A stretch of 64,000 bases of DNA from Mobula hypostoma. Its lineage: Eukaryota. The stretch lies in contig NC_086097.1 in the NCBI RefSeq assembly GCF_963921235.1, positions 164,798,001-164,862,000 on the forward strand. Reading direction: 5' to 3'. This document shows positions 6,806 to 53,799 of this stretch, piece after piece (the stretch's first letter is position 1; every line of letters starts with the position of its first letter). The notes under the pieces were generated by a model that did no database searches, had not been told where the DNA came from, and worked only from the letters and a program-made list of their open reading frames with translations. The position numbers and the translations under genes were made by a program.

Positions 6806-7982
6806 TTTTTAAAGAATCCAACACCTCCTGTACTGTAATGTGGACTATCCCCAAGACCTCCCTATTTACTTTGGACAGAAACAAACAGTTAACATTTTGG
6901 GCTGAAACCCTTCATTGGGATGTCTGCATCACAAAAAAAGAAGAAGACATCAAATCCTTCAGGTCTTTCTCAACAGTAAAAATGGGAGAAGTATTCATTA
7001 AGGACCTTGCCCATCTGCTGCAGCACCACACCAAGGTGTCCTCTTTGGTCAATCGGGGCCTTAAAGACTTAGTTTTCCCTTGTACTCTCTCAATGTGATG
7101 TTGTGATGAAATGATTTGTACAAATGGCAAGCAAAACTAAGTTTTTTCACTGTACTTCAGTATATGTGACAACAAGAAACAAATTTACCAATTTTATACT
7201 TTACATTTAGCAAGTTGGACATAGTGTGGGAAACAGTTAAGGAGATTATAGTACTGAATCAATTGCCCCCTAGAATGGGCAAATTTGAAGTCAGAGATGC
7301 AAGTATTGGATAAACCCAGGAGTTCATACGGGGATATTTCCATGATCAAACTCTAAAATACAAGCAAAAGACTTACGTGGGAAATACAACAAAAATCTTG
7401 TTTCTGCCTGTTACAACCAGAAAGACAAATATTGTTTGCTCTTTGTTCGACCCTGGACTGAGCCCACACTTGAGCCTCAAGCTAGTACAGATCACTAAGG
7501 AAAACAATGTTATTACATCTACCCATTGTCTGTCACTGTTAGAGCTAGCCAGTTAGTCCCAATCCTCCTTCCCCTTACTCTTGCAACCAATTTCTCTTTA
7601 GTCCAACTCCCTTTTAAAGTTACTATGAAACTTGCTTCCTAAGTTTTGGACAATGCATTCTAGATGACAAGAAACCTTATGCCAGGACAGAGGGCGTGAA
7701 CACCTTCCAGTTGCACCAGTACTTACCCACCAATTCAATTCTGTATCTTTGTGCTCAGAGCATAATATTTGCCTGTGCACTCAATGATGTTGCATTATGA
7801 TTCAGGCTTCCTTGTGTTGTCCAGGATATGAGAATTTGAATCCAGGTTTAGAAACATTACTAATACCCAGCATAGCATGGATGAGCAGCTAACAATAGGC
7901 AATGACAATGATATTAGGCTGATAATATGAACGTAGAAATAGTTGTCAAATTGAGGAAAGCAATGAGATGGCCTACAGAACA

Positions 7983-8170
7983 ACAAACACAAAGTGCTGG
8001 AGGAACCCAGAGGGTCAGGCAGTATCTATGAAGGGAAATGAACAACCGATGAATCAGCCCAAAATGTCATCTCTTCATTTCCTTCCATTGGTGCTGTCTG
8101 ATCAGCAGAGTTCCTCCAGCATTCTATGTGTTGCTCAAGATTTCCAGCACCTGCAGAATCTCGCGTATCC
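7983..8170. mobile_element. Old Penelope-terminus-derived inverted-repeat element
   Basis: Arms at ~7985-8042 and ~8073-8133 are imperfect reverse complements, followed by the ccagcacctgcaga tail seen in other PLE ends here. Confidence 0.6.
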
Positions 8171-19469: not shown

Positions 19470-21256
19470 ACTTTAAGTTCCCTGGCCCCCACTGCTTTAT
19501 TTTCACCATGGATGTCCGGTCCCTATATACTTCCATCCCCCACCAGGAAGGTCTCAAAGCTCTCCGCTTCTTTTTTTCGATTCCAGACCTAATAAGTTCC
19601 CCTCTGCCACCACTCTCCTCCATCTAGCGGAATTAGTCCTTACTCTTAATAATTTCTCCTTTGGCTCCTCCCACTTCCTCCAAACTAAAGGTGTAGCTAT
19701 GGGCACCCGCATGGGTCCTAGCTATGCCTGCTTTTTTGTTGGCTTTGTGGAGCAATCCATGTTCCAAGCCTATACTGGTATCTGTCCCCCACTTTTCCTT
19801 CGCTACATCGATAACTGCATTGGCTCTGTTTCCTACACGCATGCTGAGCTTGTTGACTTCATTAACTTTGCCTCCAATTTTCACCCTGCCCTCAAGTTTA
19901 CCTGGTCCATTTCTGACACCTCCCTCCCCTTTCTAGATCTTTCTGTCTCTATCTCTGGAGACAGCTTATCTACTGATGTCTACTATAAGCCTACGGACTC
20001 TCACAGCTATCTGGACTATTCCTCTTCTTACCCTGTCTCTTGCAAAAACGCCATCCCCTTCTCGCAATTCCTCTGTCTCCGCCGCATCTGCTCTCAGGAT
20101 GAAGCTTTTCATTCTAGGACGAGGGAGATGTCTTCCTTTTTTAAAGAAAGGGGCTTCCCTTCCTCCACCATCAACTCTGCTCTCAAGCGCATCTCTCTCA
20201 TTTCACGCACATCTGTTCTCACCCCATGCTCCCACCACCCCACTAGGAATAGGGTTCCCCTTGTCCTCACCTACCACCACACCAGCCTCCGGGTCCAACA
20301 TATAATTCTCCGTAGCTTCCGCCACCTCCAACGGGATCCCACCACTAAGCACATCTTTCCCTCCCCCCCCCACTTTCCACAGGGATCGCTCCCTACGCGA
20401 CTCCCTTGTCCGTTCATCCCCCCCATCCCTCCCCACCGATCTCCCTCCTGGCACTTATCCTTGTAAGCGGAATAAGTGCTACACATGCCCCTACACTTCC
20501 TCCCTCACCACCATTCAGGGCCCCAGACAGTCCTTTCAGGTGAGGCAACACTTCACCTGTGAGTCGGCTGGGGTGATATACTGCCTCCGGTGTTCCTGAT
20601 GCAGCCTTCTATATATTGGCGAGACCTGACGCAGGCTGGGAGACTGTTTCACTGAACACTTACGCTCTGTCCGCCAGAAAAAGCAGGATCTCCCAGTGGC
20701 CACACATTTTAATTCCACGTCCTATTCCCATTCTGATATGTCAATCCATGGCCTCCTCTACTGTCAAGATGAAGCCACACTCGGGTTGGAGGAACAACAC
20801 CTTATATTCCGTCTGAGTAGCCTTCAACCTGATGGCATGAACGTTGACTTCTCTAACTTCCGTTAATACCCCACCTCCCCTTCATACCCCATCCGTTATT
20901 TATTTATTTATTATGATTGTTAATTTTTTTCCTCTCTCTCCTTTTTCTCCCTCTGTCCCTCTCACTATACTCCTTGTCCATCCTCTGGGCTTCCCCCCCC
21001 TCCCCCTTTCTTTCTCCCTGGGCCTCCCGTCCCATGATCCTCTGATATCCCTTTTGCCAATCAACTTCCCAGCTCTTAGCTCCATCCCTCCCTCTCCTGT
21101 CTTCTCCTATCATTTTGGATCTCCCCCTCTCCCTCCCACTTTCAAATCTCTACTGTACCTCTTCCTATAGGTCCAGCCTGGCCTGCTGCATTCACCAGCA
21201 ATTTTTATGTGTGTTGCTTGAAATTCCAGCATCTGCAGATTTCCTTGTGTTTGCGT
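19470..21256 (+). mobile_element. Penelope-like retroelement, 5'-truncated (RT plus GIY-YIG endonuclease)
   Basis: RT motifs GVAMGTRMGPSYA, LRYIDN, LPFLDL and YYKPTDSHSYL; GIY-YIG-like GVIYCLRC...LYIGET...EHLRSV at 20570-20670 with stops; pyrimidine-rich terminal region. Confidence 0.92.
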
Positions 21257-21689
21257 TAATTCACACCATTCTTGTGCTAATGTTATAAATAATCAACATA
21301 AATCTGGAGGACATTCTCAATGATGATAGAGAACTGACCTTGGTTGCAAGCAGTAAACACATAAAAGAGTGTTGGTGACAGACTTCACTCATTTCACTCA
21401 TTTCATTAACTTCAGTGGAACTGATTGTGTCAAAGGCAAGAACAATCAACAACTGAAATAAATGGCCCAATCAGGAATCAAACTCAGGTCACTGGGTTTT
21501 GAAAATTCAACACTTTACGTCTGCAATCAAACTTCAAATATCTTCCTTAACTTTTCTGTCTTCTCTCTCAAAGTCCATGACAGAATTCTTTCCAGCCACC
21601 CTCTTATTCATTTTGCAGTCTCATGTTTGGCTGGTGCCCATGAAACATTATTTTATGAACAACATGTAGATTAATGCTCATTTTGGAGA

Positions 21690-22880
21690 TGCGACCTGAC
21701 CTTTTATCTTTTTTCTTTTCTCGGTGCAGTCCATTTATTTCTATCTGCCCAACATGCTCTTGGTATGTGTCCTACTTGTTTGTAATTTTCTGCAGGTTTC
21801 ACATTTAAACCTGCATCTGTTTGGTGTAGGGGTACCACAATGGTAACACAATTTGTTCAGCCAGGTGGGTTTCTGTTTAGATGATGCAAGTTTGTTCACG
21901 CTCACTTTCGTTCCTCACTGCAACTCAGTTGCATCTCTGCGGTTTCCATTGAAACAGCAATTTCCACTGCTTCTTTAAAAATATAAGTTGTACTTATAGG
22001 AGCTATTTTTGAATGCTTTCTTTTAAGATTCCACAAACTAAATATATCTTAGTATATCATTAAGGTCATTACCAAACTGACAATGCTCCGCTTCTTTTTG
22101 ATTCCACTTATGAAAGCTAAAGCATCCTGCAATCAACAGTGGCTTCAGTTCTAAATATTCCTGCAACAGTTTTACAATACCTGCAAAGCTCATTTCTGCT
22201 GGTTTGGTTGGAGCAGTCAAACCTTGAAGCAAACAGTATGCCTTGAAACCAGATGCACTTAACAAAATTGGCACTCACTTCTCACTGGCCATTTCATTTG
22301 CTTCAAAATGCTGTTCCAATAGCTCCATGAGCCAATTGCCCATTGTGTAATCAAACTTCTCAATCCTTCCAATGTAACCAACCATTTCTGATTTCTTTAA
22401 ATGTTTGTTATCACCCAGTACTCACTCTTTATGAACCCTGAATTTTCCTGTTTACGGCTCTTCTTTAAACTCGACGATTCTGCACACGCTGGCCTGTATC
22501 CTTTGAATTCAATCGTTCCTCACTTTTTTTTAGTACGAACATCTCGCTGCACTTTAACAGGTCGGTAGCCATATCAGGTTCATTTTAAATGTACCTCATT
22601 GCTAATATTATGTTTAGTATCTTTAAAACATCAAACTAATTCAAAGGAAGATTCAGAAGTCTGGGAATGTAGTTAGAGTTTGAGTTTACTTTAAGCAGAG
22701 TGTGCATGTATCACGTGGTAGTGTGATAACGCATACAATTCATATATTTGTACACATAACCCGTAAGGAATTATTTAAAGAACAAGAATGTATAATCAAC
22801 CTATACTTACACACATGTACAAAAACATATATATACAAACAAGATTATGCAAATATAACTGAAATATTAAATACATCACA
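21690..22880 (-). mobile_element. Degenerate Gypsy-type remnant (5' LTR ~22611-22880, decayed PBS, gag)
   Basis: Gag-like KAYCLLQGLTAPTKPAEMSF...KPLLIA..FHKWNQKE..AEHCQFG. The minus strand at ~22594-22605 resembles a decayed TGGCGACGAGG PBS. Confidence 0.6.
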
Positions 22881-24013
22881 TGTAGTACAGGAAAACAGCT
22901 TACGTGCAAGAGTCATGATAGGGTAACTTGGGAGATCAAGAGTTCACCTTTAGCAAAGTCTGATAACAGCAGGATGAGTCGGGTGGTTCATTCTCTCAGG
23001 CTTTACCATCTTCTGCCCTTTGGAAGAGTTGAGAAGAGAATGATCAGGGTGGGTGGAGGGGTGTCCTTGATTATGTTGGAAGCACAGGAGAACTCAGATA
23101 AAATTTGCAAACTTTGTCATGCATAAACCAAATCCTTGAATTTTAATCCTTTAAAAAGGGATAGCGTGGACTACCTGGCCTATGTGTTGGGGTGAATTAT
23201 GCAGGTGGGAGTCATTACTAGTACTGGAACCAATCAGACAAAAGATCATCATGCTCCATCTCTGTTTTCCCTCATCTCCATGGTAACTGTTTCTGCAACT
23301 GTTGTGTTACTGTTGCATTGCATGACTTTAAGGCTTCGTGCTCTACCAGTGATAAGGGAGGCAAGAAGTAGTGAAGGAATTTTCATGCAGCTCCTCTTGG
23401 ATTCATCACAGATCCCACTTTAGTCCATGATTCTAAGTTTAAAGCACCACTTCTCGCCAATTTCACAATCATCTCTACTTGCAACACATACTTGGCACAT
23501 CAAAAAACTGTGAAATCCAATTTCTAAGCACATTTCAATTTCATACTCTTCAGAATATGACTCATTTGTTCCCATATTAATCTGGTTAAACTCTTGTAGA
23601 AAATACAGCACGTTTAATTGAGATTGATCCAGATTGTTAATCAATTAGAACCAAATTACAAACAGTCACTGCTTTCAGAATGAATCCCAATAATTATAGT
23701 GATTCAAGATAGTGAATGGATTAATGACTTGGCTTAGACGGATATTTTAGTCAAATCTGAAATTCAGGCTAATCCTTCAATTCTTTTGTAACCTGTGTGG
23801 TTCATCTATCATTTGTTCATTTGAATTTTATAGCATGACTAATTTCAAAATAAATATATTAATCAAGTTTTTTTCCTCATTGATATTCAAATTACTTACT
23901 GATTATGTTATCAATGAAAGCGATTAGCTATTGGCAGTGTGATGGGTGATGCCTGCTATTAAAACACTGTTATTTACAGTATTATAACCTTCTGAAATTC
24001 ACAGCTATTACCA

Positions 24014-25060
24014 TAAGACCATAAGACACAGGAGCAGAATTAGGCCATTTGGCCCATTGAGTCTGCTCTGCCAATCAATCATGGCTGATCCTTTTTTTTC
24101 CCCTCCTCAGCCTCACTTCCTGGTCTTCTCCCCATAAACTTTGATGCCATGACCAATCAAGAACCTATCAAGCTCTGATTGAATACACCTAACAACCTGG
24201 CCTTCACAGCTGCCTGTGGTAATAAATTCCACAAATTCACCAGCCTCTGGCTAAAAAAATTTCTCTGAATCTCTGTTTTAAACGGATGCCCCTCTATCTT
24301 GAAGCTGTGCCCTCTTGTCCTAGACCTCCACACCATGGGAAACATCCTTTTCACACCTACCATGTTCAGGCCTTTCAACATTCAGGAGGTTTCAATGAGA
24401 TCGCCCTTCAATCTTACTGGCATTATTAGAGCATTGATTGATTGGTAGGAGGCTGTGAGTGGGAATAAAAGGACCCTTTTCTGATTGGCTACCAGTGACT
24501 AGTGGTGTTTCGCAGGTGTTGGGACTGCTTCTCTTTATGCTGTATATCAATGATTGAGATAATGGAATAGATGGCTTTGTTGCCAGGTTTGTAGATGATA
24601 TGAAGATTGGTGGAGGGGCACGTAGTGTTGAGGAAACAGGTAGGCTGCAGAAGGAAAATGGGAAGAAAGTGGAAAATGAAATATAATGTTGAAAGTGAAT
24701 GGTCATTGACTTTGGTAGTAGAAATGAATATGCAGACTATTTTCTGAATGCAGAGAAAATCCAAAAATCTGAGATGCAAAGGGACTTGGGAGTCCTTGTG
24801 CAAAACAAACTAAAGGTTAACTTGCAGGTAGAGCTGGTGGTAAGGAAGGTAAATACAATGTTAACGTTCATTTCAAGAGGTCTAGAATGTAAGAGCAGGG
24901 ATGTGATGCTGAGACTTTATAAGGCATGGGTGAGGCCAGTGCCTTGAGTGTTGTGTACAGTTTTGGGCTCCTTATCTAAGAAAAGATGTGCTGGCATTGG
25001 AGAGGGTTCAGAGGAGGTTCACAAGGATGACCTGGGAATGAAAGAGTTATCATATGAGGA
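24014..25060. mobile_element. CR1 insertion with inverted 5' part (24014-24418 minus, 24420-25060 plus)
   Basis: Two consecutive CR1 ORF2 segments in opposite orientation, flanked by ATTACCA at 24007-24013 and 25061-25067. Confidence 0.8.
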
Positions 25061-25806
25061 ATTACCACAGCACATAGAAGCATAGCACTCAATCTGTGAA
25101 TGGTATGAACCTCAGAAAAAAAGCCTGCAATGCTCTTTCTGTGTACAACCAATGATAAGACAAAAAGAGAATTGACTACAGGAAAAAAAATAGTGGCAGA
25201 ATGGCGGTTGTCATTTGCTGGTTGTGCCAGAATGACCTATTTCAATATCAAAAGAAAATATGGTAATTGCGACTTATTAATAGGGAGCACTGACCTCAAA
25301 GCAACTATGTTGGGGAACCCCACTAGTGCCATTCCGTTAGTCATGCTGCTGAATTTGTTTTATTTGCAGCCTCACAAACATCAGCCTACTGACCTACAAT
25401 GCTACTTCAATGCAGTTTCTAGGTCAAAAAGCAATTTGTCAAACATCCCAAAAAGCACCATTCAACTTTATTTAGGACCTTATTTTCCCAGGGATAGCCT
25501 TTTACGTTTCAGATCCATCCAAACTGGAATTCAGTTGCCATTTATGTGCCCATTCTGCAGATTTGTTAAAGCCTCTTGTATTTTGTTGCCAATCTCCTCA
25601 GTACTAATTACAGCTCTCAATGCATTGCCAACTTGATAATTATAGTTCTGATTCTCGATTCTAAGTCATTAGTGCAAACTGTGAGCATCAGTGATCTCAT
25701 TGATCTATACTGAGCACCACTCATGATTGAATGACAGAACCGAATCAGGAGATGAATAGCCTACTTCTACCTATTACACCAAAACTATGCAGCCAAATCT
25801 GAAAAA

Positions 25807-26891
25807 AAGGCAACAATTTGTGGGAATAAACGGGACCTTTTCAGAATGGCAGGCGGTGACTAGTGGGGTACCGCAAGGCTCAGTGCTGGGACCCCAGTTG
25901 TTTACAATATATATTAATGACTTGGATGAGGGAATTAAATGCAGCATCTCCAAGTTTGCGGATGACACGAAGCTGGGTGGCAGTGTTAGCAGTGAGGAGG
26001 ATGCTAAGAGGATGCAGGGTGACTTGGATAGGTTGGGTGAGTGGGCAAACTCATGGCAGATGCAATTTAATGTGGATAAATGTGAAGTTATCCACTTTGG
26101 TGGCAAAAATAGGAAAACAGATTATTATCTGAATGGTGGCCGATTAGGAAAAGGGGAGGTGCAACGAGACCTGGGTGTCATTATACACCAGTCATTGAAA
26201 GTGGGCATGCAGGTACAGCAGGCGGTGAAAAAGGCGAATGGTATGCTGGCATTTATAGCAAGAGGATTCAAGTACAGGAGCAGGGAGGTACTACTGCAGT
26301 TGTACAAGGCCTTGGTGAGACCACACCTGGAGTATTGTGTGCAGTTTTGGTCCCCTAATCTGAGGAAAGACATCTTTGCCACAGAGGGAGTACAAAGAAG
26401 GTTCACCAGATTGATTCCTGGGATGGCAGGACTTTCATATGAAGAAAGACTGGATGAACTGGGCTTGTACTCATTGGAATTTAGAAGATTGAGGGGGGAT
26501 CTGATTGAAACGTATAAGATCCTGAAGGGATTAGACAGGCTAGATGCGGGAAGATTGTTCCCGATGTTGGGGAAGTCCAGAACGAGGGGTCGCAGTTTGA
26601 GGATAGAGGGGAAGCCTTTTAGGACCGAGATTAGGAAAAACTTCTTCACACAGAGAGTGGTGAATCTGTGGAATTCTCTGCCACAGGAAACTGTTGAGGT
26701 CAGTTCATTGGCTATGTTTAAGAGGGAGTTGGATATGGCCCTTGTGGCTACAGGGGTCAGGGGGTATGGAGGGAAGGCTGGGGCGGGGTTCTGAGTTGGA
26801 TGATCAGCCATGATCATAATAAATGGCGGTGCAGGCTCGAAGGGCCGAATGGCCTACTCCTGCACCTATTTTCTATGTTTCTATGTTTCTA
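25807..26891 (+). mobile_element. Young CR1 LINE 3' portion
   Basis: Open RT C-terminal frame to 26794 (SGVPQGSVLGP, KFADD, FFTQRVVNLWNSLP) and a (TTCTATGT)n tail at 26870-26891. Confidence 0.95.
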
Positions 26892-27053
26892 ATTCTCGTC
26901 CAACACATACATTAGACTAAAACAATGTTCCCAAAATAGAAGGCAAGTTGGAAGAGAACAAATTATTGACTCACCACAATCCGTAAAGGTGTTAATAGCT
27001 AATATTTTAAACAATAGCTAATAAGTAGGAATTACATAAGTTAAGGAATACAA

Positions 27054-27336
27054 GCAACACACACAAAAGTTGCTGGTGAACGCAGCCGGCCAGGCAGCAT
27101 CTCTAGGAAGAGGTACAGTCAACGTTTTGGGCCAAGACCTTTTGTCAGGACTAACTGAAAGAAGAGCTAGTAAGAGTAAGAGCTCTCACTAGCTCCTCTT
27201 TCAGTTAGTCCTGACGAGGGGTCTCAGCCCGAAACATCGACTGTACCTCTTCCTAGAGATGCTGCCTGGCCTGCTGCATTCACCAGCAACTTTTGTGTGT
27301 GTTGCTTGAAATTCCAGCATCTGCAGATTTCCTCAT
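27054..27336. mobile_element. Palindromic Penelope-terminus element with 14-bp TSD
   Basis: ~120-bp inverted arms (27051-27171 and 27188-27308) and GTTAAGGAATACAA at 27040-27053 and 27337-27350. The arm sequence matches the PLE termini at 32191-32300 and 59600-59721. Confidence 0.9.
27207..27242 (+). ncRNA. Minimal type I hammerhead ribozyme motif (PLE-type, one substitution in stem III)
   Basis: agtc-CTGACGA-ggggtctcagccc-GAAA-CATC-gact: stem I, core, stem II, GAAA and cleavage triplet. Confidence 0.7.
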
Positions 27337-28194
27337 GTTAAGGAATACAAATTGGAACTTTAAATTATAAAGGACAACTTGTGACACAACATTGCTGTTA
27401 CAGATTCTGAATGAATTTATTAGAACTCTATTAACCAGCCTCTTACATAAGTGCTCTTGGGCTCCATATCTGCCATTAGTATCATTATGGTTAAAATAAA
27501 AGGTTGTAGGTGTCAAACAGGAAGGAAATTCATTCACTTCTAAATGAACTGAGGTAAGGAAAACAGAAAAGGTTCAATGATTGTTCATTAATTTTTCAAA
27601 GCGATAGCCTTTCTTCCATTATATGAAATGCAGCTTCAGAAAACATTCCACGCCAGGTTCATGAATTTTCATAATAGCCAAAGTTAAGGGACAGAGCATA
27701 ATGAGCGTGAGATAAAAGTACAGCAAGTTTTCTAGTTTCAGTCTTACAGATTCTACAGGCAGATTTTAGTTGACAGATGATAATCACTTCATTGCAAAAT
27801 CTACCATAACATCAGTGTAAAATTGTGAAAGATGGGGTTGTTAAGAAAGATTGAGATATGAGGTAAACATTTCCAACAGTTTCTTTCAAATACTGCTTTG
27901 TTTTGCACTATAATCTTTTTCCCAATAGGGCTCAGCCCATTTAAGTTAGAGCTAGGTAGAATTAGGGTAAAATTGCACCAGATAATGCTGTTTCAAAGCA
28001 GACTGCTGGAATTTAACTCAGAATTCACAGCTCCTTGTGTTGAAAGTCAGATTTTTAAAAAAGGCCAATATCAATAGAAGTTAATCTTGAGTTCATTTCT
28101 CAATTGGAGTGAAACATAGGAAGAGAACCAGACTCCTTGCTCCTTGAGTCTTTCCTAGCATTCAATCAAACCATGGTTAATCTGCACATTAAAT

Positions 28195-28900
28195 CGAATG
28201 GTTGTGGACCTTAGGAAGGGGAAGTCAGGAGAACACACACCAGTGGAAAGGGTGAGCAGCTTCAAATTTCTGGGTGTCAACATCTCAGAGGATTTATCCT
28301 GGCCCAACATATTGATGCAGTCATGAAGAAGACACACCATATTTCTATACTTTATTAGGAATTTCAAGATTCAAAATTGATTAATGTGAGAATTAAATAA
28401 TTGTTGTAAACGAGAGAAATCTGCAAATATTGGAAACCCGAGCAATGCACACAAAATGCTGGAGGAACTCAGCAGACCAGGCAGCGTCTATGGAAAAAAG
28501 TACAGTCGACATTTTGGGCCAAGACCCTTCAGCAGGACTGGACTCTGGATCCTATGCAACAAAAAAAACACAGTAAGTTAGAGAACACAAATCACCAAAA
28601 ACTCTTGCAACTTTCTACAGATATATGGTGGAGAGCATCACAACCTAGCATGATTTTCCAATGTACAGAATCAAAAGAAGGTACTAGACTCAGCCAGCTC
28701 CACCACAGGAACAATCCTCCCCACCACTTGGCACATGTTAAAGAGCTGTGGCATCTACAACTAAGGACCTTCTGGGACATGCATTCTTCTCATTAGAGCC
28801 ATCAGGGTGGAAGTAGAGGAAGAGGAAGACCCACACTCATTGACTTAAGAACAGCTTCTTCCCCTCTGCCATCAAATTTCGGAGCAGTTCATGACCTTAT
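28195..28900 (+). mobile_element. Old Rex1/Babar fragment interrupted by a PLE terminal fragment (~28405-28545, minus)
   Basis: ERVSSFKFLGVNISEDLSW motif, and a PLE end with a decayed hammerhead at 28504-28539. Confidence 0.65.
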
Positions 28901-29619
28901 GAGCACCACTTCATTCTACCCTTCTTTTGGACTATTTATTTTGCAATACACAGTAATTCTTACATCTTGTGTAAAACAACAAATTTCACAACATATGTCA
29001 TTGATGATAGACCTGATTCTGGTTCTGATATTTAAACATCTTGGTCCGGTAATCCTCAAATTTATCCATAAATCTCAGTTTTGAAGGCTTCAGCTGACTG
29101 GCAGACCTCAAGAGCTTTCCTGGGGGAGACAATTTCAAGCTTCCACCACCTGTTGCATGAAGGTGTACTCTCTGACAGTATCTTTGTAATAATGCAGATT
29201 TGCAGAAAAACTTTCACGCACAACACAGTTATGATTTGGAAATCACTGACCCTGAGGGCAATGCAAACAGAATTAATCTAAACTTTAAAAAGAATACTGC
29301 GTAGCCACTTGAGAAAGAATAATTTGCATTGTTAACAGAAATGAGCAAAGGAATGAAAATTACAGAATTACTTAACTGGGACTCAGCATGGACTTAATAG
29401 GCCATATTTGTTCTGAAATTCAGAATGGTACAGATTTAATTTTTAGATTGTTCCTCCACTTTATGGACCATCTAACATATGGAACTATTCTATCTGCTCT
29501 ATCAGCTCCTTCAACCATTTTAAACCCTTGTTTCATTGCTGCTAAATCTTCATTGATGAAGGTAGTCGTGCTGTTTTAGGCAAGAAATAAAAGAAGGAGC
29601 TAATATAACAGTATAGCAA

Positions 29620-29925
29620 GGAACAGGCCCATGACTGTGTTGACCATGATGTCAATCTAACAACCATATCTGCCTTTACATGATCCTTATCCCTCCTTTC
29701 CTTACCTGTTCATATCTCTATCTTAAACATTGCTCTTACATCTGCTTCCACTGCCACCCCAGAAGTGTGTTCCATGCACCTGCTACTCTCTGTGTGAAAA
29801 CATACCTCACAGATCCCTTTTAAACTTTCTCCCCTCACTTTAAACCTATGCCCTGTTGAATTTGGCATTTCCATCCTGGGAAAACGACTTTGACTATTGA
29901 CCCTATCTGTGCCCCTCATTGTTTT
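29620..29925 (-). mobile_element. CR1 3' fragment
   Basis: MRGTDRVNSQSRFPR...GHRFKVRG. Confidence 0.75.
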
Positions 29926-31189
29926 ATATACTATCAGTACACCCTTCAGAAATCAAAACTACTCTTAAGTGAATGAGGCAAAATAAAATCTTATTTATCT
30001 TCTGAAAATTGTAGCAATAGTAATTTATTTTGCTTTTCCCCCTTTGTTCACTTGTTTTCCTAAAGTTCCACCTTAACACAACCTGCAGTGGCAGCTCAAA
30101 CAAGCCAGTGCCACTGCTGGTGACCTCACGGGTAGTCATCCTTGTATGATGTGCACTCCGATCAATCCTATAATGACGTTCCACTAAGTGGAAAAAATGT
30201 ATTCAATCCTTTATTAGCATCTAGCAAAGCAAACAATCTTGAAGCGATCCAATTAAATGGTCGACAAAGGATATGACACCCGGCGGTCCACGGCTCCAAA
30301 CTGCCCGGAACAAAACATGGATAAGGAGCTTATTCGCTTTGCCTTTACCACACCCCCACCCATGTGACTAGTTACCATAACAAACACGCAACACAAAATA
30401 CAATACAGATGGAAAACAGATACATGGCTCCTACATACCTGCCCCCTAATTATTATACTATAATAATTACAGCTACCAACTACCAAAACACAGGAGACAC
30501 GAAATCCTGACATCCACGCAAATGTCCTCTTTCTGTTAAGTGGTCCATCCTGGATTGTGATCTTCTCTTGACACACCAGGTTGTTCCTTTTGACTGCATT
30601 TGGGAAAATCTGACTTGAATTGCTGCTGCCGAGTTCAAAAATAAAATCCTGTTAACTGTCAGCCCTGGCTGACCGTAATCTCTTTCGCCACCATTGTCTC
30701 TGTCAGCCCTGGTTGAGCGTAGTCTCTTTCACCACCATGGTCTCCTTTCAATGGTCCATTAACAGTCCAACCCAGCATTGATCTGATTGTATAGGGTCCA
30801 CCATTAACACTGCAAATCACTTGCTGTAGCTCCAATACTTTAGGCACATTTGTCCTATGAGCGGCTCAGCTTCTGAATCAAATTCCAACAAGTAGATATG
30901 ATTCAGGTGAGACCATTCCTGAAGATCCCTTTGATAAGGACTGTTCCTGAAATCCTGAAATGACATAGCTTCTCATGACCTCTCTTGACCCATGGTGCAT
31001 AAGAGAATGAGCTCCTTTTTCTGTCAGATTGAGTTTCTTCATGAGTTTCACTGTGCAGAACACTGCCGTACTTCTTTGATCCAGGAAAGCATAAATAACC
31101 ACTGTCTTGTTACCCTTCTTAGACTTCACCCGGCCCCCATAAGGCCATTGGATACCAGGGTGTTACTCACTGCTTTGTCTGATTCTTTC

Positions 31190-31703
31190 ACGGCTTCAAC
31201 TCAAGTCGTCACTTTTTATTGTCACTTCAACCATAACCGTTGGTACAGTACACAGTAAAAACGAGACAACGTTTTTCAGGACCATGGTGCTACATGAACA
31301 ATACAAAAACTACACTGAACTATGTAAAATAACACAAAACTACACTAGACTACAGACCTACCCAGGACTGCATAAAGCGCACAAAACAGTGCAGGCATTA
31401 CAATAAATAATAAACAAGAAATAATGCACAGTAGAGGGCAGTAGGTTGGTGTCAGTCCAGGCTCTGGGTATTGAGGAGTCTGATGGCTTGGGGGAAAAAA
31501 CTGCTACATAGTCTGGTCGTGAGAGCCTGAATACTTCGGTGCCTTTTGTCAGATGGCAGGAGGGAGAAGAGTTTGTATGAGGGGTGCGTGGGGTCCTTCA
31601 CAATGCTGTTTGCTTTATGGATGCAGCATGTGGTGTAAATATCCGTAATGGCAGGAAGAGAGACCCCGATGATCTTCTCAGCTGACCTCACCATCCACTG
31701 CAG
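31190..31703 (-). mobile_element. Rex1/Babar 3' fragment inserted in the BEL/Pao element
   Basis: VRSAEKIIGVSLP...DPTHPSYKLFSLLPSDKRHRSI...FFPQAIRLLN. Confidence 0.85.
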
Positions 31704-32190
31704 AGTCTGGCAATCTGCAATTTTTTCGAATCTGCAGCCTCTTCAGCAGAGTCACTATGAAGTATACTGGGATGCTTGCCACTGCATACCTTGCTTGAAA
31801 AACACTTCCTACAATCCTTGCTGATGTGTCCTGTACACAAACAACCAAAGTACACACCATTTTGTTTTAGGCAGGCTATCTTCCTATTATGAACCTTTTT
31901 CCCCAGCTGAGAGCACAAATCTGAAGTATATTCACCCTGGTAGAAGAGACACACCCTTTTGGCTGACAAAACCGTTTCCCTTTCATTAGTCCTGGGCTCA
32001 GTTTTAGCTTTACTTTTCACAATAGCCACAGTAGTGGCAAAGCTACTTTGGAACAAATTCTTTACTTACTCTTATTTACACGTTTGCTCACTGCCAGTGA
32101 TGTATACATTTCTAACACTAGTTGTGTAGCAATCTTTACTTGCCTTTCAATAAATTGAACAATGTCAGTGAAAGTAATCCAATGGTTGTG

Positions 32191-32699
32191 ACATACATCA
32201 AAGTTGCTGGTGAACGCAGCAGGCCAAGCAGCATCTATAGGAAGAGGCGCAGTCGACGTTTCAGGCCGAGACCCTTCGTCAGGACTAACTGAAGGAAGAG
32301 TGAGTAAGGGATTTGAAAGCTGGAGGGGGAGGGGGAGATCCAAAATGATAGGAGAAGACAGGAGGGGGAGGGATAGAGCCAAGAGCTGGACAGGTGATAG
32401 GCAAAAGGGGATACGAGAGGATCATGGGACAGGAGGCCTAGGGAGAAAGACGGGGGGGGGGACCCAGAGGATGGGCAAGAGGTATATTCAGAGGGACAGA
32501 GGGAGAAAAAGGAGAGTGAGAGAAAGAATGTGTGCATAAAAAGGAGTAACAGCTGGGGTACGAGGGGGAGGTGGGGCCTAGCGGAAGTTAGAGAAGTCAA
32601 TGTTCATGCCATCAGGTTGGAGGCTACCCAGACGGAATATAAGGTGTTGTTCCTCCAACCTGAGTGTGGCTTCATCTTTACAGTAGAGGAGGCCGTGGA
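32191..32699 (-). mobile_element. Penelope-like 3' fragment inserted in BEL/Pao gag
   Basis: Homologous to 20745-21230; TSD CCAATGGTTGTG at 32179-32190 and 32700-32711. Confidence 0.9.
32251..32286 (-). ncRNA. Minimal type I hammerhead ribozyme motif, intact core
   Basis: Minus strand agtc-CTGACGA-agggtctcggcct-GAAA-CGTC-gact, with palindromic ACGT in place of stem III and a GUC triplet. Confidence 0.8.
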
Positions 32700-33269
32700 C
32701 CAATGGTTGTGCCTTTTTTACAGATAACAGGCCACTGTCCTCCATTTATCCCTAAGCATGTAGGGCAATTTCTTTACAACAATCAACATAGTAGCAGGCA
32801 TGTCCAGCTCACACATGTCCTGCACTTCTTCCACGGCATTGCGACAGCCTCTAAGAAAAAGACTGTAATCTTGAAGAGCTTTCACGACTTCTGATTTCAT
32901 ATGCAGCCAAGGAAGAGCCTTTCCAATGTAGGCTGCAGCAATTTTGTTCTCATCACCAAAATGCTCCAGTAGTAAAGCTTTGGCTTTTAAATATCTTTGG
33001 TCCAGGTTGGCTTGCTGGCAAATTTTGACAAGCTCTCTAGGGTAACCTCTAGTGAACTGTTCGACAAAATAGAGATAGTTGCTATAATCATCGGTCTTAA
33101 TTTCAATGCTATTCTTGGATTTTCTCTGCCATGTCAACATAGGAACTCACACCATTGAACTAACTTGCTGAAGCACCTTTACCACCCACAGCATCTGAAG
33201 CTTCATTGCTTTCACTTTGGTCATCCTGGCTGCAATTTCGTCCTGCAAATTAAGCTGCTCCAGCTTTCT

Positions 33270-33380
33270 TCGTAGCTGCTTATGGTTTCTCCAAAGCTGT
33301 TCTTTCATCTGCTCCTTTCCTCCCCAAAGCTGTTCTTCCATCTGCTCCTTTCTTCTCCAAAGCTGTCCTTCCATCCTCTC
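33270..33380 (-). repeat. 33-bp in-frame tandem repeat in the BEL/Pao gag N-terminus
   Basis: MEGQLWRRKEQ MEEQLWGGKEQ MKEQLWRNHKQ. Confidence 0.8.
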
Positions 33381-35527
33381 CACCTCTTCTTCCAATGTAT
33401 GTTTATCAGTCAATATTTGTTGCCTTGCACATAACTCAGCTAAATCAGTCTCTATTCTAATACGTACCAAAGTGTTATCAGATGCACAGGATGCTCTACT
33501 AGCAATAGAACCTGCAGCATGCATGTTAGATGCACTGTCTTCAGGGTGTATGTCATCCTGAAAACCATCAGCTCTATATGTGGTCAAAGCATGCCCTGTG
33601 GCTTGGTAAATATTTTCATATACTCCAGCAATTCGATCTTCAACATTGCATGTTCTTTTCAACCATGGTTCAACCTCTGCTGTGACTGTATTAATAAGAG
33701 TCTGAACATTCGCAAAGCTTTTGGTTTGATTATCTTGCCCTGAGCTAGGCATTAAAGACAACGACACATTATGTTACTTATCAAAATCTTCACAAAGATT
33801 TTTCAAATCGTCCAAACGAGATTGCACTTGAAAGACATTTTGCTTTTCTTGTACTGGGAAATGGCTAATTAATAGTATTAAATCATTAATCTTCTTAACA
33901 ATTTTATAGTCCTTTTGAATACTACCAATTCTACTTGCCAAATTTTTTTCAGTAAATTTAATTTCTCTTTTAGTCCTGACTTTAAGGACGCTGCTTCCAG
34001 TTTGACTCATGTTGTTTTCAAATGTGAGAACTAAACAAAACAACACCATTCAATTCAGATGTCAACAATGAAATATTTCAGCATTTTAACAGCACCAAGT
34101 GCCAAACTCTTAGGTGAACATCACATCAGGATGACCAACCCCAAACATGCAGCATGAATCAACAAAAGATTTCTGCTCGCCACAATGCAGTTAGAAAACA
34201 GATGCATTACTCCTACACAAGCCATTCCACTTCTAGTTCATTCTTTGGGTGCACTAGAAACTAAGTAAGCTAGACATCTATCTAATTGCTGGGATATAAG
34301 AATATATTTGTAAGTCATATTAAAGTTACCATCAAGTGATGTAAACCAGATCGTTTCTATAAAAGGTAGTAACCTATCCTTTAAATTTGGGTATTAAGCT
34401 AAAATTCTATGTAAGTACAGGGAAAACATTCCACTAACAGCATGGAAATCCTTTATAGATTACAGGATCTGTCAACGTCATCATTAACTTGTCAGAGCTG
34501 ATATTGTGGCCTTCATTGACCATGGCACATCCTATTTTACTGGACAAGGATAAGCAAGGAATTCTCTGTACATAGTGCATTGGGCTAAAAGGAATGCAGC
34601 TTCAAGGCCAGGACTAGGGTGCCAAAAATAATTACACTAATGATATAAGAATACAGTAACCAGTTGATGTACTTGCAAACCAGAGAGCATGAAGTCAAAT
34701 TCCATCAAATCAAGTTGGAAAGTTAAAAATAGTAAATGCCATACGATGTCTGACACAAGATAAAATTACCGTGAAAACAGCTGAAGAACTGTAAGTTACC
34801 AACAATTCATTAATGGAACTTAAAGATAGCAAGCTTCCACTCCTAGCAAGCTTAGTGTTATGTACTCATGTATATTTTAACCCTTACTGGTTGCTGTCAA
34901 GATTCCCTGTGTGTTACGTACTGAATGTAATGTGAGAGGGCATTCAGGGCAGATGACTTGCAAGCAAAATAGACAGCTGCAAGTTTGCTCCTCACCTCTC
35001 TGTCTCTCATGTGTGGTATTCACGGCCACCCCACTTCCCAGTATCATAAACGTAACAACTGGCAACAAGGTGACAAGTCCTCACACGATATTTATTGTTC
35101 TGTTCCCTTCAGCAAGAAAAGTCCATGTGCAACGTTGGTGGTGTACCACTGTGAAATATGAGTGAGTGAAAAGAAAACGGTTGCAGGAAACATGGCGAGT
35201 GAAGAATCTGAGGAGAGAGAACTAGGACAAGATGGTTAAGTAAAACAAATAAGAGAGGGAGAGAGAGACGGATAAGACTAGTTAATTTTTCTGGAATGTG
35301 ATTGTATTTAAATATGACAACAATATTTGGAGATATAGGGCCATGTGATAAAATGACAGAGCAATGGAGTCCATATACTGAATGATTTGAATATTTTGCA
35401 CTGGCAAATCAAATTTCAGATGATACTCATGTTCCAACTTTTCTGACTGAGATGGGTGCAAAAATGTTTAATTTATTATGCAGTCTAGTGCAACCTGCTA
35501 TACCCAACGAAAAGTCATAGTTACAGC

Positions 35528-42483: not shown

Positions 42484-43178
42484 ATGACCGACGCTGCATC
42501 TGTTCACGCAGTTTCGTTAAAACTGCCAAGCTTCTGGATGCTGCGACCCCAATTATGGTTCGAACAAGCAGAAGCACAATTCCACATTTGGCAGATAACC
42601 TCAGAGTCCACTCGCTACTACTACGTGCTGAGCTCACTCGACCAGGAGACTGCTGTACAAGTTGAGGAGTTTATACAGTCACCCCCGGAGGACGGCAAAT
42701 ACACAGCATTCAAAGCCCTGCTTTCGGACTCTCACAGCGAGAACGAGCACGCCGCTTAATGCGCCTGGATGGTTTGGGAGACAGGCCGCCGTCAGCATTA
42801 ATGAACGAGATGCTGGCCCTGGCTGAAGGACACAAACCCTGCCTCGTGTTTGAGCAGGCGTTCCTAGAGCAACTGCCCGAGGACATATGCCTGCTGCTGT
42901 CCGACGCAGATTTCAGCAACCCCCGGGAGGTGGCGGCCCGAGCAGATGTGCTGTGGAATGCCAGGAAAGAGAGAGGGGCATCCGTCGCACAGATCACCAA
43001 GCCGCGTGCCCAATGACAGACCAGACCAGGCCTGGCAGCAGAGCCTACAAAACCCGGCGACGGGAGTGAGGAGCCCAACAAACAATGGTGTTTCTACCAC
43101 CAGCGGTGGGGCACAGAGGCCCGCCGCTGCAGACCACCCTGCAAATTCCCGGGAAACGCCAGGGCCAGCCGCCGCTGA
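42484..43178 (+). pseudogene. gag: Gypsy gag (frameshift ~42720, stop at 43014)
   Basis: MTDAASVHAVSLKLPSFW...WFEQAEAQF; LGDRPPSALMNEM; C-terminal CFYHQRWGTEARRCRPPC. Confidence 0.85.
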
Positions 43179-46100
43179 TGGCTACGGCAGCTGGCCATCA
43201 GGACAGCCTCCTGTACGTCTGGGACAAGCAGTTGGGACGCCGCTTTTTGGTCGACACCGGAGCGGAGATCAGCGCCTTACCTCCAACGAGTTACGACACC
43301 CGCAACAGAGAACCGGGACCCACCCTGAGGGCCGCTAATGGCAGCACAATACGAACCAACGGCACCCGCACGGTGCGGCTATGGTTCAGCTCCAGCGGGT
43401 TCACATGGGACTTCACACTGGCCGCCGTGGCCCAACCACTGCTGGGGGCAGATTTTCTACAAGCCCACAGCCTGCTGGTCGACCTGCAAGGGAAGCAATT
43501 AGTCCATGCCAAGACTTTTCAAACGTTCTCCCTGGGTGAAGCGCAGTTGCCAGCCCCACACCTGGACTCCATCACGCTGTCCGACAATGAATTCACCAGG
43601 GTCCTGGCGGATTTCCCATCAGTACTGACACCGCAGTTCACGGCAGCCATGCCCAGACACGGAGTACAGCACCACATCCCGACCCAGGGACCACCTCTCC
43701 ACGCCCGTGCTCGAAGGCTTCCCCCGGACAAGCTCCGACTGGCGAAGGAGGAGTTCAAGAAGATGGAGGAATTAGGGATCATACAACGGTCCGACAGCCC
43801 ATGGGCCTCCCCCCTTCACATGGTGCCCAAGGCAACGGGGGGCTGGAGACCATGCGGTGACTACCACAGAGTGAACGAGGCTACAACGCCAGACCGCTAC
43901 CCTGTGCCACACATTCAAGACTTCGCAGCAAACCTACACGGCGCAAGGATCTTTTCCAAGGTAGACCTCGTTCGGGGATACCATCAAATCCCTGTACATC
44001 CGGACCACATCCACAAAACAGCACTTATCACCCTGTTCGGACTTTTCGAATTCCTCCGAATGCCGTTTGGTCTAAAGAATGCCACACAGACTTTCCAGCG
44101 GCTAATGGACGTGGTGGGACGCAACCTGGACTTTGCATTCATCTATTTGGACGACATCCTCATAGCCAGCAGTAGTCGACAGGAGCATCTGTCCCACCTC
44201 CGCCAGCTCTACTCCCACCTGAGCGAATTCGGCCTTACAATCAATCCAGCCAAATGCCAGTTCGGACTCGACACCATCGACTTCCTGGGCCACAGGATTA
44301 CTAAAGACGGGGCAACCCCGCTGCTTGCCAAGGTAGACGCGGTCCACCACTTCCCCCGACCCAACACAATCAAAGGCTTGCAGGAATTCGTGGGTATGGT
44401 GAATTTTTACCACCGTTTCCTCCCCTCAGCAGCCTGAACCATGCGCCCCCTGTTCACCCTGATGTCGGATAAGGGCAAGGACATTACCTGGGATGAAGAG
44501 GCCGGAACCGCTTTCGTTAAAACCAAAGAAGCCTTAGCAAACACCGCGATGCTAATGCACCCCAGAACGGACGCTCCTACTGCCCTCACGGTGGACGCAT
44601 CCAACACAGCGGTCGGTGGAGTGCTGGAACAACTCATCGAGGGTCGCTGGCAACCCCTGGCGTTCTTCAGCAAACACCTACGACCACCCGAACTCAAATA
44701 CAGTGCTTTCGACTGGGAGCTATTGGCACTATACCTGGCAATCTGGCATTTCAGGTACTTCTTAGAAGGCAGGCCCTTCACCGCGTTCACAGACCACAAA
44801 CCGCTTACCTTTGCGTTCACGAAGGTGTCCGACTCCTGGTCGTCCCGCCAGCAGCGACATCTGTCCTACATCTCCGAGTACACGATGGACATCCGGCATG
44901 TCTCTGGAAAGAACAACGTCGAGGCGGACACACTTTCCAGACCTACCATACAGGCCCTGTCCCAAGGGGTGGACTATGCAGTGCTGGCAGAGGCACAGCA
45001 GGCAGACGCTGAGATCCCCAGTTACAGGACTGCAGTCTCCGGTTTACAGCTCCAAGACCTCCCCATAGGCCCAGGTGAGAGGACCCTACTATGTGACGTA
45101 GCTACCGGCCAACCCCGCCCCGTCGTCCCAGCAGCCTGGCGCCGGCGGGTGTTCGAATCCATTCACAACTTAGCGCACCTCTACATCAGGACAACCGTCC
45201 GGCTGGTCGCCAACAGGTTCGTGTGGCATGGACTTCGTAAACAGGTCAGTGAATGGGCCAAAACGTGTATGCAGTGCCAAACGGCCAAGGTACAGCAGCA
45301 CACCAAGGCTCCGCCACAGCGGTTCGAACCCACCCGCCGGAGGTTCGACCACATCCATGTGGGTATCATGGGGCCCCTGCCAGTGTCGCGAGGAGCGCGG
45401 TACCTCTTAACTATGGTAGACCGGTTCACCAGATGGCAGTCCCGCTCACCGACACCACCTCCGAATCCTGCGCCCGAGCACTGATCGCAACCTGGGTAGC
45501 ACGCTTTGGGGTACCAGCCCACATTACCTCCGACAGGGGCGCCCAGTTCACCTCCAGCCTGTGGTCAGCTATGGCCAGCCTTTTAGGATCACAGCTACAC
45601 CACACAACTGCCTACCACCCACAGTCGAACGGACTAGTGGAGCGTTTCCACCGTCACCTGAAATCGGCTCTCATGGCCCGCCTGGAGGGGCCTAACTGGG
45701 TGGACGAACTTTCCTGGGTCCTGCTCGGAATCCGCACGGCACACAAGGAGGATCTACACACCTCGTCGGCCGAGTTGGTGTACGGCGCGCCCTTGGTCGT
45801 CCCAGGAGAGTTCATACCAGCCCCAAGGGGGCAAGAGGAAGAACCCACAGCAGTCCTGGACAGACTACGGGAGAGGCTTGGTAATCTGGCCCCCATACCC
45901 ACTTCACAGCACGGACAGAGCCCGACCTGCGTACCCAAAGACCTGCAGAACTGTAAGTTTCTTCTTGTACGACGGGGCGGACACCGGGCAACGCTACAGC
46001 AGCCCTACGAGGGACCGTTTAAGGTGATCAGGAGCAACGGGTCCACGTTCGTGCTGGACATTGGGGGGAGAGAAGAGGTTTTCACGGTGGATCGACTCAA

Positions 46101-46437
46101 ACCGACCCATGTGGACTTGGCGCAACCGGTCCAGGCTCAGGCACCGCGGCGCAGGGGCAGACCTCCCAAACAGAGGCCGATCCAGACTGTGGACATTGGG
46201 GGAGGTATCGCCGGTTCTGTGGGGGGGTTATGTGGCGACCCACTTTCTGGCACCCACGAACCGGCTCACAACAGCGCGCGCAGGCAGAGGGCCGGCCTCA
46301 AAAAGGGCGCCAGGCCATCTTCATCAGCGGGGGAAAATCCTGCGCGCAGAAAGGGTCTGGGAATATGCATTCCCCACAGCAGTCCCGCCCAGGGAGGGCA
46401 GGAACGGGAAGGCTTTAAAGCGGGCCGCGAAGTTTGA
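43151..46437 (+). pseudogene. pol: Gypsy pol: protease, RT, RNase H, integrase (stop at 44435, frameshift ~45430)
   Basis: FLVDTGA, SPWASPLHMVPK, YLDDILIAS, TVDASN, FTDHKPL, ITSDRGAQF, SNGLVERFHR, PYEGPF. Confidence 0.93.
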
Positions 46438-46754
46438 ATAAATCTCTTTCATCGCAACTCTAACTCACCGACTCTGTGTGGTTATTCTAGCGCAGTGTGT
46501 AGCACATCGCTACACTACAACCATTTCTCCCCAGCATCTTCTCTCCATCTCCTCTCAAACTAAAGCCCAAAAACAACCTTATTGACTCTCACCAAGAAAA
46601 CCTCCCGCTAATTGGATGGCACACATTCCACATCATCACTTAGCTTCAACGGTGAGCTGAACAGGCTGAAAGCAGAACAGACTGCTCTTACAGAACTGCT
46701 AAGTGAAATACCTACAGCGTATCGGTAAAGATGTGAACCAAGGCATTACACAAG

Positions 46755-47825
46755 CAAAACACTGGAGGAACTCGGCTGGCCAGGCAGCATCTATGAAAAA
46801 AAGAGTACAGTTGACTTTTCGGTTCGAGACCCTTCATCAAGACTGGAAAAAAAAAAGATGAGGAGTCAAAGTAAGAAAGTGGGGTGGGGGGAGGGAGAGA
46901 GAACCCCTCCAAGGTGATAGGTGAAACTGGGAGGGGGGTAGGGATGAAGTTAAGAGCTGGGATATTGATACAGGGCTGGAGAAGGGGGAAATCAGACTGG
47001 AGTCTACCCAGACAGAATATAAGGTGTTGCCTCTCCAACCTGAGTGTGGCCTCATCATAACAGTAGAGGAGGGGCCCTGAATGGTAGTGAGGAAGGAGGT
47101 GTAGGGGGCAGGTGTAGCACTTGTTTCACTTGCAAGGATAATGCCAGGAGGAAGATCAGTGGGAAGGAATGAACGGATAAGAGAGTGCATAGGGAGCGAT
47201 CCCTGTGGAAAGCAGGAAGTGAAGGGGGGGGGGGATTGGAAGGAAAGATATGCCTGGTGGTGGGATCCTGCTGGAGATGCAGAAGTTTCAGAGAATTATG
47301 TGCTGAGCACGGAGGCTGCTGGGGTGGTAGGTGAGGACAAGAGGAAGCCTATCTCTTTTGAGTGGCGGGAGGGCAGATGTGCATGAAATGGAAGAGATGC
47401 GGTTGAGGGCAGCATTGATGGTGGAGGAAGGGAAGCCCCTTTCTTTGAAGAGGAGTGCCACCAGAAAAAGCGGGATCTCCCAATAGCCACCCACTTTAAT
47501 TCCACTTCCCATTCCCGCTCCGACATGTCAGTCCATGGCCTCCTCTACTGTCACGATGAGGCCACACTCAGATTGGAGTAGCAACACCTTATATTACGTC
47601 TGGGTAGCCTCCAACCAGATGGCATGAACATTGATTTCTCAAACTTTCAGTTATGTCCCCCCCCTTCTCCATTCCCCATTCCCATTTCCCTCTCTCACCT
47701 TATCACCTCCCACTGGTGCTCTACCCCCTTTTCTTTCTCCCATGGCCTTCTGTCATCTCCCTTCTCCAGACCCGTATCTCTTTCACCAATGAACATACCA
47801 GCTCTTTACTTCACCACTCCACCAC
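46755..47825. mobile_element. Rearranged Penelope-like element (minus 46755-47458, plus 47459-47825)
   Basis: Both halves are homologous to the C-terminal/GIY-YIG/terminal part of 19470-21256 in opposite orientations, with a decayed hammerhead at 46809-46844 (-). Confidence 0.8.
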
Positions 47826-47844
47826 TTACAATTCCACCTATTAC

Positions 47845-52700: not shown

Positions 52701-53799
52701 TTGCAGCTTATTGTCTACCTACTAAGCACTTTCTCTGTCAGTGTGACACTATATTCTGCACTGTTATTGCTTTCCTCTGGTTCTACATGAATATATTTAG
52801 CTTTGAAATGTTATGTATGGCTTTCAAAACTAAGTTCTTCATTGTATCTCAGTACACATAGCAATAATAAACAATTCCTATGAGACTGTTAAAACATAAT
52901 TGAAGGTGTATGAAACAGTCAATTCTCCAAAAAGGCAGTCACACCTTTTAGCATTGGTTCATGATGCATTGAAAACTTCAGCTCAGTCCTGTGCAAGACA
53001 CACAAAATGGTGAAGGAACTCAGCAGAATAGATAGCATCTATGGAAATGAATAAACAGCTGCTATTTTGGGCCGAGACACTTCATCACGACTTTGTCCTG
53101 TCCTGACAAAGTAGAATTTCACAATGAAAGGAGATCATAAATTATTTAATGATTTGTCATGTAGGTGAAGCCTTCTGCTGTGCCTGCTGCCCTGGTCATT
53201 TCAGGTTGTAGAGATCACAAAATTAGGAAGTATTGTTGAGGAACCTTTGGCAATTTGTTGCAGAAAATCCTGTGGTCTGGTGAAGCAAGGGAATCTTTAA
53301 TTGAACTGAAAATAAATTCAGGCTTAGGGTTCCTGATTATGTATTTGAAGAATTCTCCTGACAGTGTTACCGAGCAGCCAGACAAAATCGAGTAAGTTTT
53401 TGGTATATTAATGAAGGTCATTTAAAAAATAGAACTCCACCTCCAGTGACAGGTTTATAGGATGTATCATAGAGGCGCCTCTCTGAAAATACATTGTACA
53501 GGAGCATAAATTACAGTGACATACAGCCAGGGTCTCACAGGAGATCTGAATGCAGAGTTGAATACAGCATCGGAACGTGAGTGAATATTTCTGGGAGGGA
53601 AAAAAAGATCAGAATGAAATAGTATATTTTACTTTCCATAAACATTAGGAAGAAATATTACTAGTAAATCTGATGGAATTTATACATACTAGCTGGGCAA
53701 AGATAAATCTAGGTTCCCAAACCAATGAATGCCTGCAGTTGCACAAATGCAGTCACAAAGACAGACTGAACGCAAGGATGCTTTTAATTTCCTACCTGA

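Follow-up and report, generated by a model that had tools for sequence, protein, structure and literature searches.

Inverted copies and inverted hammerhead motifs have been described for several Penelope-like elements (PLEs), and we draw here on the available portions of the papers cited. These portions describe a 5'-truncated, inverted PLE copy with a 30-40-bp tail at one end only (PMC8557442), and head-to-head PLE junctions with palindromes and 8-10-bp duplications that were read as self-priming (PMC3846280). For rotifer PLEs, self-priming was proposed to occur on an antisense template (PMC3846280), and the origin of the tandem and inverted structures of PLEs is called undefined in PMC8557442. 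The minimal type I hammerhead (min-HHR) of metazoan PLEs was defined in PMC4209133, where dual min-HHRs lying 100-700 bp apart on opposite strands were ascribed to truncated PLEs. As presented in the excerpts of PMC11167929, a PLE protein cuts and extends both target strands with two reverse transcription (RT) start sites a tail apart, and its activity in vitro does not need hammerhead cleavage. Hairpin self-annealing has been described at L1-made ends (excerpts of bioRxiv 10.1101/2024.12.14.628481), and retrozymes are described as tandem direct repeats (excerpts of PMC7229834 and bioRxiv 10.64898/2026.07.22.740005). Among the titles and abstract openings covered by our literature search, twin priming in PLEs was not found.

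The locus studied here lies in a 64-kb stretch of DNA, hereafter the window, which was analysed over its whole length. We interpret it as a single, old and dead insertion of a Neptune-type PLE, of which only the last ~150 nt were laid down, in head-to-head orientation (probability about 0.88). The insert occupies positions 27054-27336 (283 nt) inside a perfect 14-bp target-site duplication, and comprises the following features.

27040-27053, no strand: left target-site duplication, 14 bp, identical to the right flank; single copy in the empty site of run X10 by length arithmetic
27054-27176, minus strand: left arm, the inverted, tail-less 3' end of the pLTR of a Penelope-like element, 123 nt
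27117-27152, minus strand: minimal type I hammerhead motif, degraded by G8>A, G12>A, C17>U and disruption of the first pair of stem II
27177-27182, no strand: turning point, a 6-nt tandem duplication of 27171-27176
27183-27305, plus strand: right arm, the sense 3' end of the pLTR, 123 nt, starting at the base of the parent where the left arm stops
27207-27242, plus strand: minimal type I hammerhead motif with G16.2>A; predicted cut after 27238
27306-27336, plus strand: one-sided PLE tail, 31 nt
27337-27350, no strand: right target-site duplication, 14 bp; its first 3 nt match the continuation of the tail

The 14-mers at 27040-27053 and 27337-27350 were identical and occurred nowhere else in the window, which bears out the 283-bp insertion with a 14-bp duplication reported in an initial annotation of this DNA. 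As a control, 1500 random pairs of 36-nt segments lying 300 nt apart in the window shared words of 3-10 nt; the sole exception, of 14 nt, was the duplication of the insert itself. An inverted-repeat search recovered 126 nt around the insert at 90% complementarity, with arms 6 nt apart, and the RNA fold of the insert had a minimum free energy of -223 kcal/mol (z -27.7), a stability reached by none of 200 shuffles. The inverted repeat measures 126 rather than 123 nt because three extra paired bases are supplied by the target. Each end of the insert has 3 nt in common with the target: the last 3 nt of the left target copy are the continuation of the element, and the first 3 nt of the right copy that of the tail. 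The tail is present on the right end only, and measures 34 nt if these common bases are counted. The two arms share their end point in the parent, to the base, and differ from each other at 12 positions, seven of CpG type (by reading of the alignment) and five non-CpG. Three changes in the right arm were of the T>C or A>G type, for which RNA editing before insertion was considered as a source but not adopted, their number being too small.

The initial annotation had described inverted arms around a 16-nt spacer, followed by a unique tail. The arms were recovered, but the spacer consists of arm sequence plus the 6-nt tandem duplicate, leaving no unique letters between the arms. Likewise, the tail is the 3' tail of the parent family, which is also carried by the copies at 21221-21252 and 28410-28440.

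Two other classes of hairpin-forming DNA were considered and rejected. A miniature inverted-repeat derivative of a DNA transposon (MITE) is contradicted by the 31 extra nt at the right end, which make the ends asymmetric, by family duplications of 11-14 bp rather than one fixed length, and by the retroelement origin of the sequence. A miRNA gene was rejected as well; of the 15 sub-threshold Rfam matches at 27000-27400, 11 were to miRNA-precursor models, which fit any long hairpin, and none was to a hammerhead. At gathering scores, Rfam gave no match in the 64-kb window. The Pfam cut-off was passed by none of the 43 stop-to-stop frames of at least 62 aa at 21264-33773 (197 frames were listed outside masked repeats).

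Every base of the insert derives from the 3' terminus of a PLE, that is, from its pLTR and 31-nt tail. The arms and tail aligned to longer copies in the window at 59590-59721 (86-88%), 32191-32308 (86%) and 21149-21252 (88-93%), and to older copies. The longer copies extend as follows.

19477-21255, plus strand: longer copy of the parent family, with RT and thumb, CxxxxCxxC linker, broken GIY-YIG endonuclease, 3' UTR, pLTR and tail
57787-59721, plus strand: one-armed, tail-less, internally deleted family copy with an 11-bp duplication
32191-32699, minus strand: one-armed, tail-less family copy of 509 bp with a 12-bp duplication

The RT-thumb frame of the first of these copies had 200 relatives at an E value of 0.001 or better. 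Among the best 120 of these 200, identities were 39-66% and PF00078 was present, often together with PF01541; the best named relatives in this set were shark proteins (64-66% identity). The GIY-YIG-like domain lies in a separate frame downstream of the RT, is interrupted by two stops, and matched Pfam at an E value of 0.024, below the cut-off. Between RT and endonuclease lies a CxxxxCxxC linker; in the available part of PMC8557442, a CX2-5CxxC linker is given as a Neptune feature, with such a motif in Nematis too. Taken together, the linker and the RT and GIY-YIG relatives identify the parent as an endonuclease-bearing PLE, which by its linker was probably of Neptune type. The host genome is probably that of a cartilaginous fish. 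The family is very abundant: in each of four DNA runs, 18,615-64,864 contigs aligned to the stretch.

As a separate observation on the 19477-21255 copy, its hammerhead region alone has been deleted (21143-21152), between short repeated words, and the rest of the pLTR and the tail have been kept. Single-arm pLTR stumps of older subfamilies were also seen on the minus strand at 28410-28548 and 52993-53095, both ending just upstream of the hammerhead.

Contigs of four public DNA runs (X1, X5, X9 and X10; organisms A-D) were aligned at 85% likeness. One contig from run X10 (organism D) matched 26893-27031 and 27337-27733 with 9 letters in between, where an empty site predicts 8. By the length arithmetic of the aligned pieces, this contig spans the empty site with a single target, and the 14-bp duplication therefore arose on insertion. 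In run X9, a 1-nt insertion was found at 27029. Flank divergence increased from no differences in 634 nt in X1 to 1.4% in X5, 4.0% in X9 and 6.4% in X10. Contigs of X1 and X5 joined 19-20 tail letters to the right flank, and X5 also had 11 arm letters at the left; these joins are shorter than our bridge threshold of 31 letters, and fit a filled site. In X9 (organism C), one contig matches as far as the end of the left target copy and no further, with 13 letters of the contig remaining, which is suggestive of an empty site, albeit one that is not bridged. Hence, the insertion took place after the split from organism D and probably before the split between A and B. This age is in keeping with the five non-CpG differences between the arms. 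Further to the right, X9 and X10 both have about 330 extra letters at 27731-27735 that are absent from the window, reflecting either a deletion in the lineage of the window or an insertion in the relatives.

The anatomy of the insert follows that of published PLE insertions. It combines an origin from the element's terminus, a min-HHR within the pLTR, an inverted, 5'-truncated head-to-head copy, a tail at one end, and a target-site duplication. Compared with Pen2a_Av of Adineta vaga and the scheme in Fig. 2 of PMC8557442, insofar as these are given in the portions of PMC3846280 and PMC8557442 at hand, it has the same inverted pLTR ends and the same 30-40-bp tail at one end. It also shares the target duplication of 8-14 bp and the palindrome at the junction with these endonuclease-bearing (EN+) insertions. 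In contrast to insertions of the Pen2a_Av type, its arms are cut to 123 nt with no ORF left, and it belongs to a Neptune-like family of shark or ray type. One of the two origins put forward in the initial annotation, a truncated and inverted PLE insertion, is supported by this published anatomy, by the empty site and by the presence of parent copies in the window.

The other origin put forward there was a retrozyme-like family, whose members would share the same centre; turning points that differ from copy to copy were named as evidence against it. The four runs yielded 359 distinct joints between parts of the insert, with a maximum depth of 95 among the best 15 of the 359. In fourteen of these best 15, the left arm is joined to the right arm or to the tail; no two of them use the same pair of positions, their short sides measure 21-34 nt, and they are the head-to-head junctions of other copies. 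The joint from 27102 to 27146 was left out of the counts, being a deletion inside a single arm. Two further head-to-head insertions in the window also turn elsewhere, at about 8040-8060 and at 47449/47458. Turning points thus differ among copies, which is the outcome that had been named as speaking against a same-centre family; the low depth at the centre of the insert points the same way.

At the centre (27182), this depth was 114 in X1, where the arms reached 0.7-7.2 million and the flanks 6-10; in X5, X9 and X10 it was 111, 8 and 19, respectively. Contig depth is not copy number; contigs are broken up by repeats and perfect palindromes, and part of the centre depth is contributed by contigs that lack 1, 2 or 7 nt at this point. 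The centre depth, at 13-18 times the flank depth in X1 and X5, may reflect about ten near-identical centres, and small families at other centres are conceivable. Seven of the 14 best-supported joints were present in two organisms, and could represent old insertions common to both, hot spots or small families.

These numbers bear on a further explanation, in which the insert belongs to a small non-autonomous palindromic family that is transcribed and re-inserted by the PLE protein with one centre kept. Such a family could draw on the pLTR cis-sequences at both ends of the insert, and pLTR-flanked cargo moved in trans has been described (available portion of PMC3846280). The excess of centre over flank depth and the recurrence of some joints, at depths of 30-95 and in two organisms, would also agree with it. 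Against it, the centre depth lies four orders of magnitude (about 10,000-fold) below that of the arms, deletion-bearing contigs contribute to it, and the joints differ by the hundreds. A second copy of the insert's centre was not found in the window, and at 27087, 27140 and 27218 the insert carries private non-CpG differences, with the other letter in 94-99% of the depth. We consider this explanation very unlikely. It is similarly improbable that some fold-back stumps have by now become elements, that is, short palindromic RNAs with a fixed centre and PLE start sites at both ends. If they had, small families would be re-inserted by the PLE protein with the hammerheads as passengers, and a by-product of PLE integration would have given rise to a MITE-like class of retroelement. 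Among the titles and abstract openings covered by our literature search, none described a palindromic family of non-autonomous PLEs.

A turning point at the hammerhead cut site was also considered, and rejected for the insert, whose turning point lies 55 nt upstream of the predicted cut; one of the 14 best-supported joints (27121 to 27239) does turn at the cut site.

The two other head-to-head insertions in the window are as follows. The one at 7981-8170 is a second, older PLE stump of a diverged subfamily, with a tail-less left arm and a tailed right arm; it turns inside the hammerhead and no longer has a clean duplication. The one at 46745-47845 is asymmetric and turns inside the ORF, has an internal deletion in its left arm, and its right arm is cut off at the point where a minus-strand LINE RT frame ends.

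For the truncated PLE insertion, we propose the following mechanism. The PLE endonuclease would have cut both strands of the AT-rich target with a stagger of 14 nt, and each target 3' end would have primed reverse transcription on element RNA through 3 nt of pairing. Priming by the top-strand end at the inner start site would yield the tail-less left arm, and priming by the bottom-strand end at the outer site, 31-34 nt further out, would yield the tail and the right arm. The first cDNA would have stopped after ~123 nt and then folded back on itself; alternatively, both cDNAs could have run off one RNA end. The ends would finally have been joined with a 6-nt templated slip, so that the mirror half was built at insertion.

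Priming on both target strands has counterparts in known systems. In the available sections of PMC11167929, the Poseidon element PAc of Anolis likewise extends both target strands in vitro, and its two RT start sites are one tail length apart, in agreement with the insert, where one arm end lacks the tail and the other carries it. PAc differs in that it belongs to the Poseidon clade and its ORF starts inside the hammerhead, and inverted junctions were not reconstituted with it. Similarly, in L1 twin priming both target strands prime cDNA and the inversion lies inside one duplication (PMC12016303, in part). In contrast, L1 pieces overlap by a median of about 12 bp, whereas the pieces of the insert overlap by a whole arm.

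We infer the join step from geometry only. Self-priming fold-back of the first cDNA has, in our estimate, slightly better than an even chance, whereas end-joining on one RNA is a possible but rather doubtful course. A third course, which concerns the join step alone and is compatible with the identification as a truncated PLE, is that two independent truncated cDNAs from two RNAs were joined end to end and that their matching ends are coincidental. It could accommodate the 7 of the 20 listed joints that differ by more than 16 nt, as well as the asymmetric insertion at 46.7-47.8 kb. However, symmetry to within 16 nt was found for 12 of the 14 best-supported joints, where independent ends would give a fraction of 0.235 (binomial 1.6e-6), and for 13 of the 20 listed joints (the 14 and six further ones; binomial 9e-5); these statistics rest on best-supported rows, which are not independent. 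The variants at 27256 and 27295 also speak against two RNAs: they are common to both arms but missing from the three window copies nearest to the insert, consistent with a single template. We therefore regard two independent cDNAs as unlikely. The correlated turning points favour the fold-back step, or a run-off of both cDNAs at one RNA end.

Four of the 20 listed joints link an inverted arm to a bare tail (to 27305-27313), and form a second class of junction resembling L1 twin priming as presented in part of PMC12016303. Near-symmetric fold-backs and arm-to-bare-tail joins are the products expected if both strands prime on one RNA, a tail apart, and the inner cDNA is afterwards either folded back or directly joined.

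The motif of the family is a minimal type I hammerhead, with a 4-bp stem I, a bulge after A9, a 4-bp stem II and a palindromic 15.2-16.2 (positions in standard hammerhead numbering), and its core and stems I and II were present in seven aligned family copies. Like the min-HHRs of PMC4209133, it has a short stem I, a base bulged out after A9, a pair between G10.1 and C11.1, no loop on helix III and, in the family, a palindromic 15.2-16.2, and two motifs lie on opposite strands. Unlike the dual min-HHRs of that paper, the motifs of the insert are only 55 nt apart, have a stem II of 4 bp, and are both decayed. A degenerate pattern of the hammerhead region had no match in metagenome contigs.

The initial annotation placed the motifs correctly at 27207-27242 (+) and 27117-27152 (-), and its account of the decay of the left motif by CpG loss agrees with our result, as G8>A and G12>A both lie at CpG sites; C17>U and the break of the first stem II pair add to this decay. 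G8 and G12 are the catalytic guanine pair of the hammerhead. In the excerpts of PMC11167929, G8C abolishes cleavage. Damage to the right motif had been overlooked. There, C3-A9, G12-A15.1, U16.1 and C17 are kept and stems I and II are intact, but G16.2>A breaks both the C15.2-G16.2 pair and the palindrome needed by the dimer.

Folding predictions depended strongly on context. For the right 44-mer alone, the pair probabilities of stems I and II were 0.71-0.99. Inside a single arm, those of the stems were 0.01 or less, an alternative fold of the arm being favoured by about 6 kcal/mol. They fell to 0.0 in the complete insert, whichever strand was folded, as well as in nascent transcripts, and forcing stems I and II was predicted to cost 47 kcal/mol (+) and 49 kcal/mol (-) for the whole insert and 46 kcal/mol for nascent transcripts. 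In the head-to-head geometry, the complement of each motif is always transcribed before the motif; with the antisense arm made first, the motif would therefore be trapped in the transcript of either strand. The long hairpin that had been expected from transcription in either direction thus holds as a prediction of folding. In all likelihood, the hammerheads are the pLTR's own motif, copied twice, since decayed, and predicted to be unable to fold in a transcript of the insert.

The presence of hammerhead motifs on both strands, the rod fold and the stems formed by the isolated right motif might suggest a rod of retrozyme or viroid type, with ribozymes functional in both polarities and circular RNA as its product. 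With one motif per strand, however, each transcript would be cut once, and release of a unit-length RNA is therefore impossible. Moreover, the left core lacks G8 and G12 and the right motif lacks G16.2, the predicted folds trap each motif behind its antisense arm or in the alternative fold of a single arm, and monomeric min-HHRs showed no cleavage in the portion of PMC4209133 available. The insert shares with metazoan non-LTR retrozymes, as outlined in the same excerpts on retrozymes cited above, its non-coding nature, a length of about 300 nt, a type I hammerhead, a PLE origin and a long target duplication. Those elements, in contrast, are arranged head-to-tail with ribozymes on the same strand and have circular monomers, whereas the insert is a single inverted pair. 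Tandem hammerheads on the same strand were not found here, the motifs being one per strand and inverted, and the only long direct repeat at 26000-28500 was the target duplication. The unit is not fixed either, given the 359 joints and a centre depth of 114 against millions on the arms, and cleavage is predicted to fail by the core substitutions and a penalty of 46-49 kcal/mol. These varying turning points, absent tandem motifs and trapping hairpins lead us to abandon the retrozyme-like origin, which we consider extremely improbable.

The elements of this structure are already in print: inverted copies with a one-sided tail (PMC8557442), palindromic junctions (PMC3846280) and min-HHR pairs on opposite strands (PMC4209133). 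The insert is an ordinary case of a published insertion pattern that exists in very many copies. Its interest lies in the record of the mechanism, since such miniature insertions keep both priming sites, the cut stagger and the join within 300 bp. As a statistical lead, thousands of junctions of this kind could settle how PLEs form inverted ends. Furthermore, if such inserts lie in transcripts, they would provide ready-made 120-bp dsRNA for editing or small-RNA production.

Elsewhere in the window, stop-broken pol frames of Gypsy type were observed at 43070-46437, with an RT match and with RNase H-like and integrase-like motifs recognised by eye. A palindrome of 57 bp with TA on both sides was found at 63726-63786, which may be a miniature derivative of a Tc1/mariner element.
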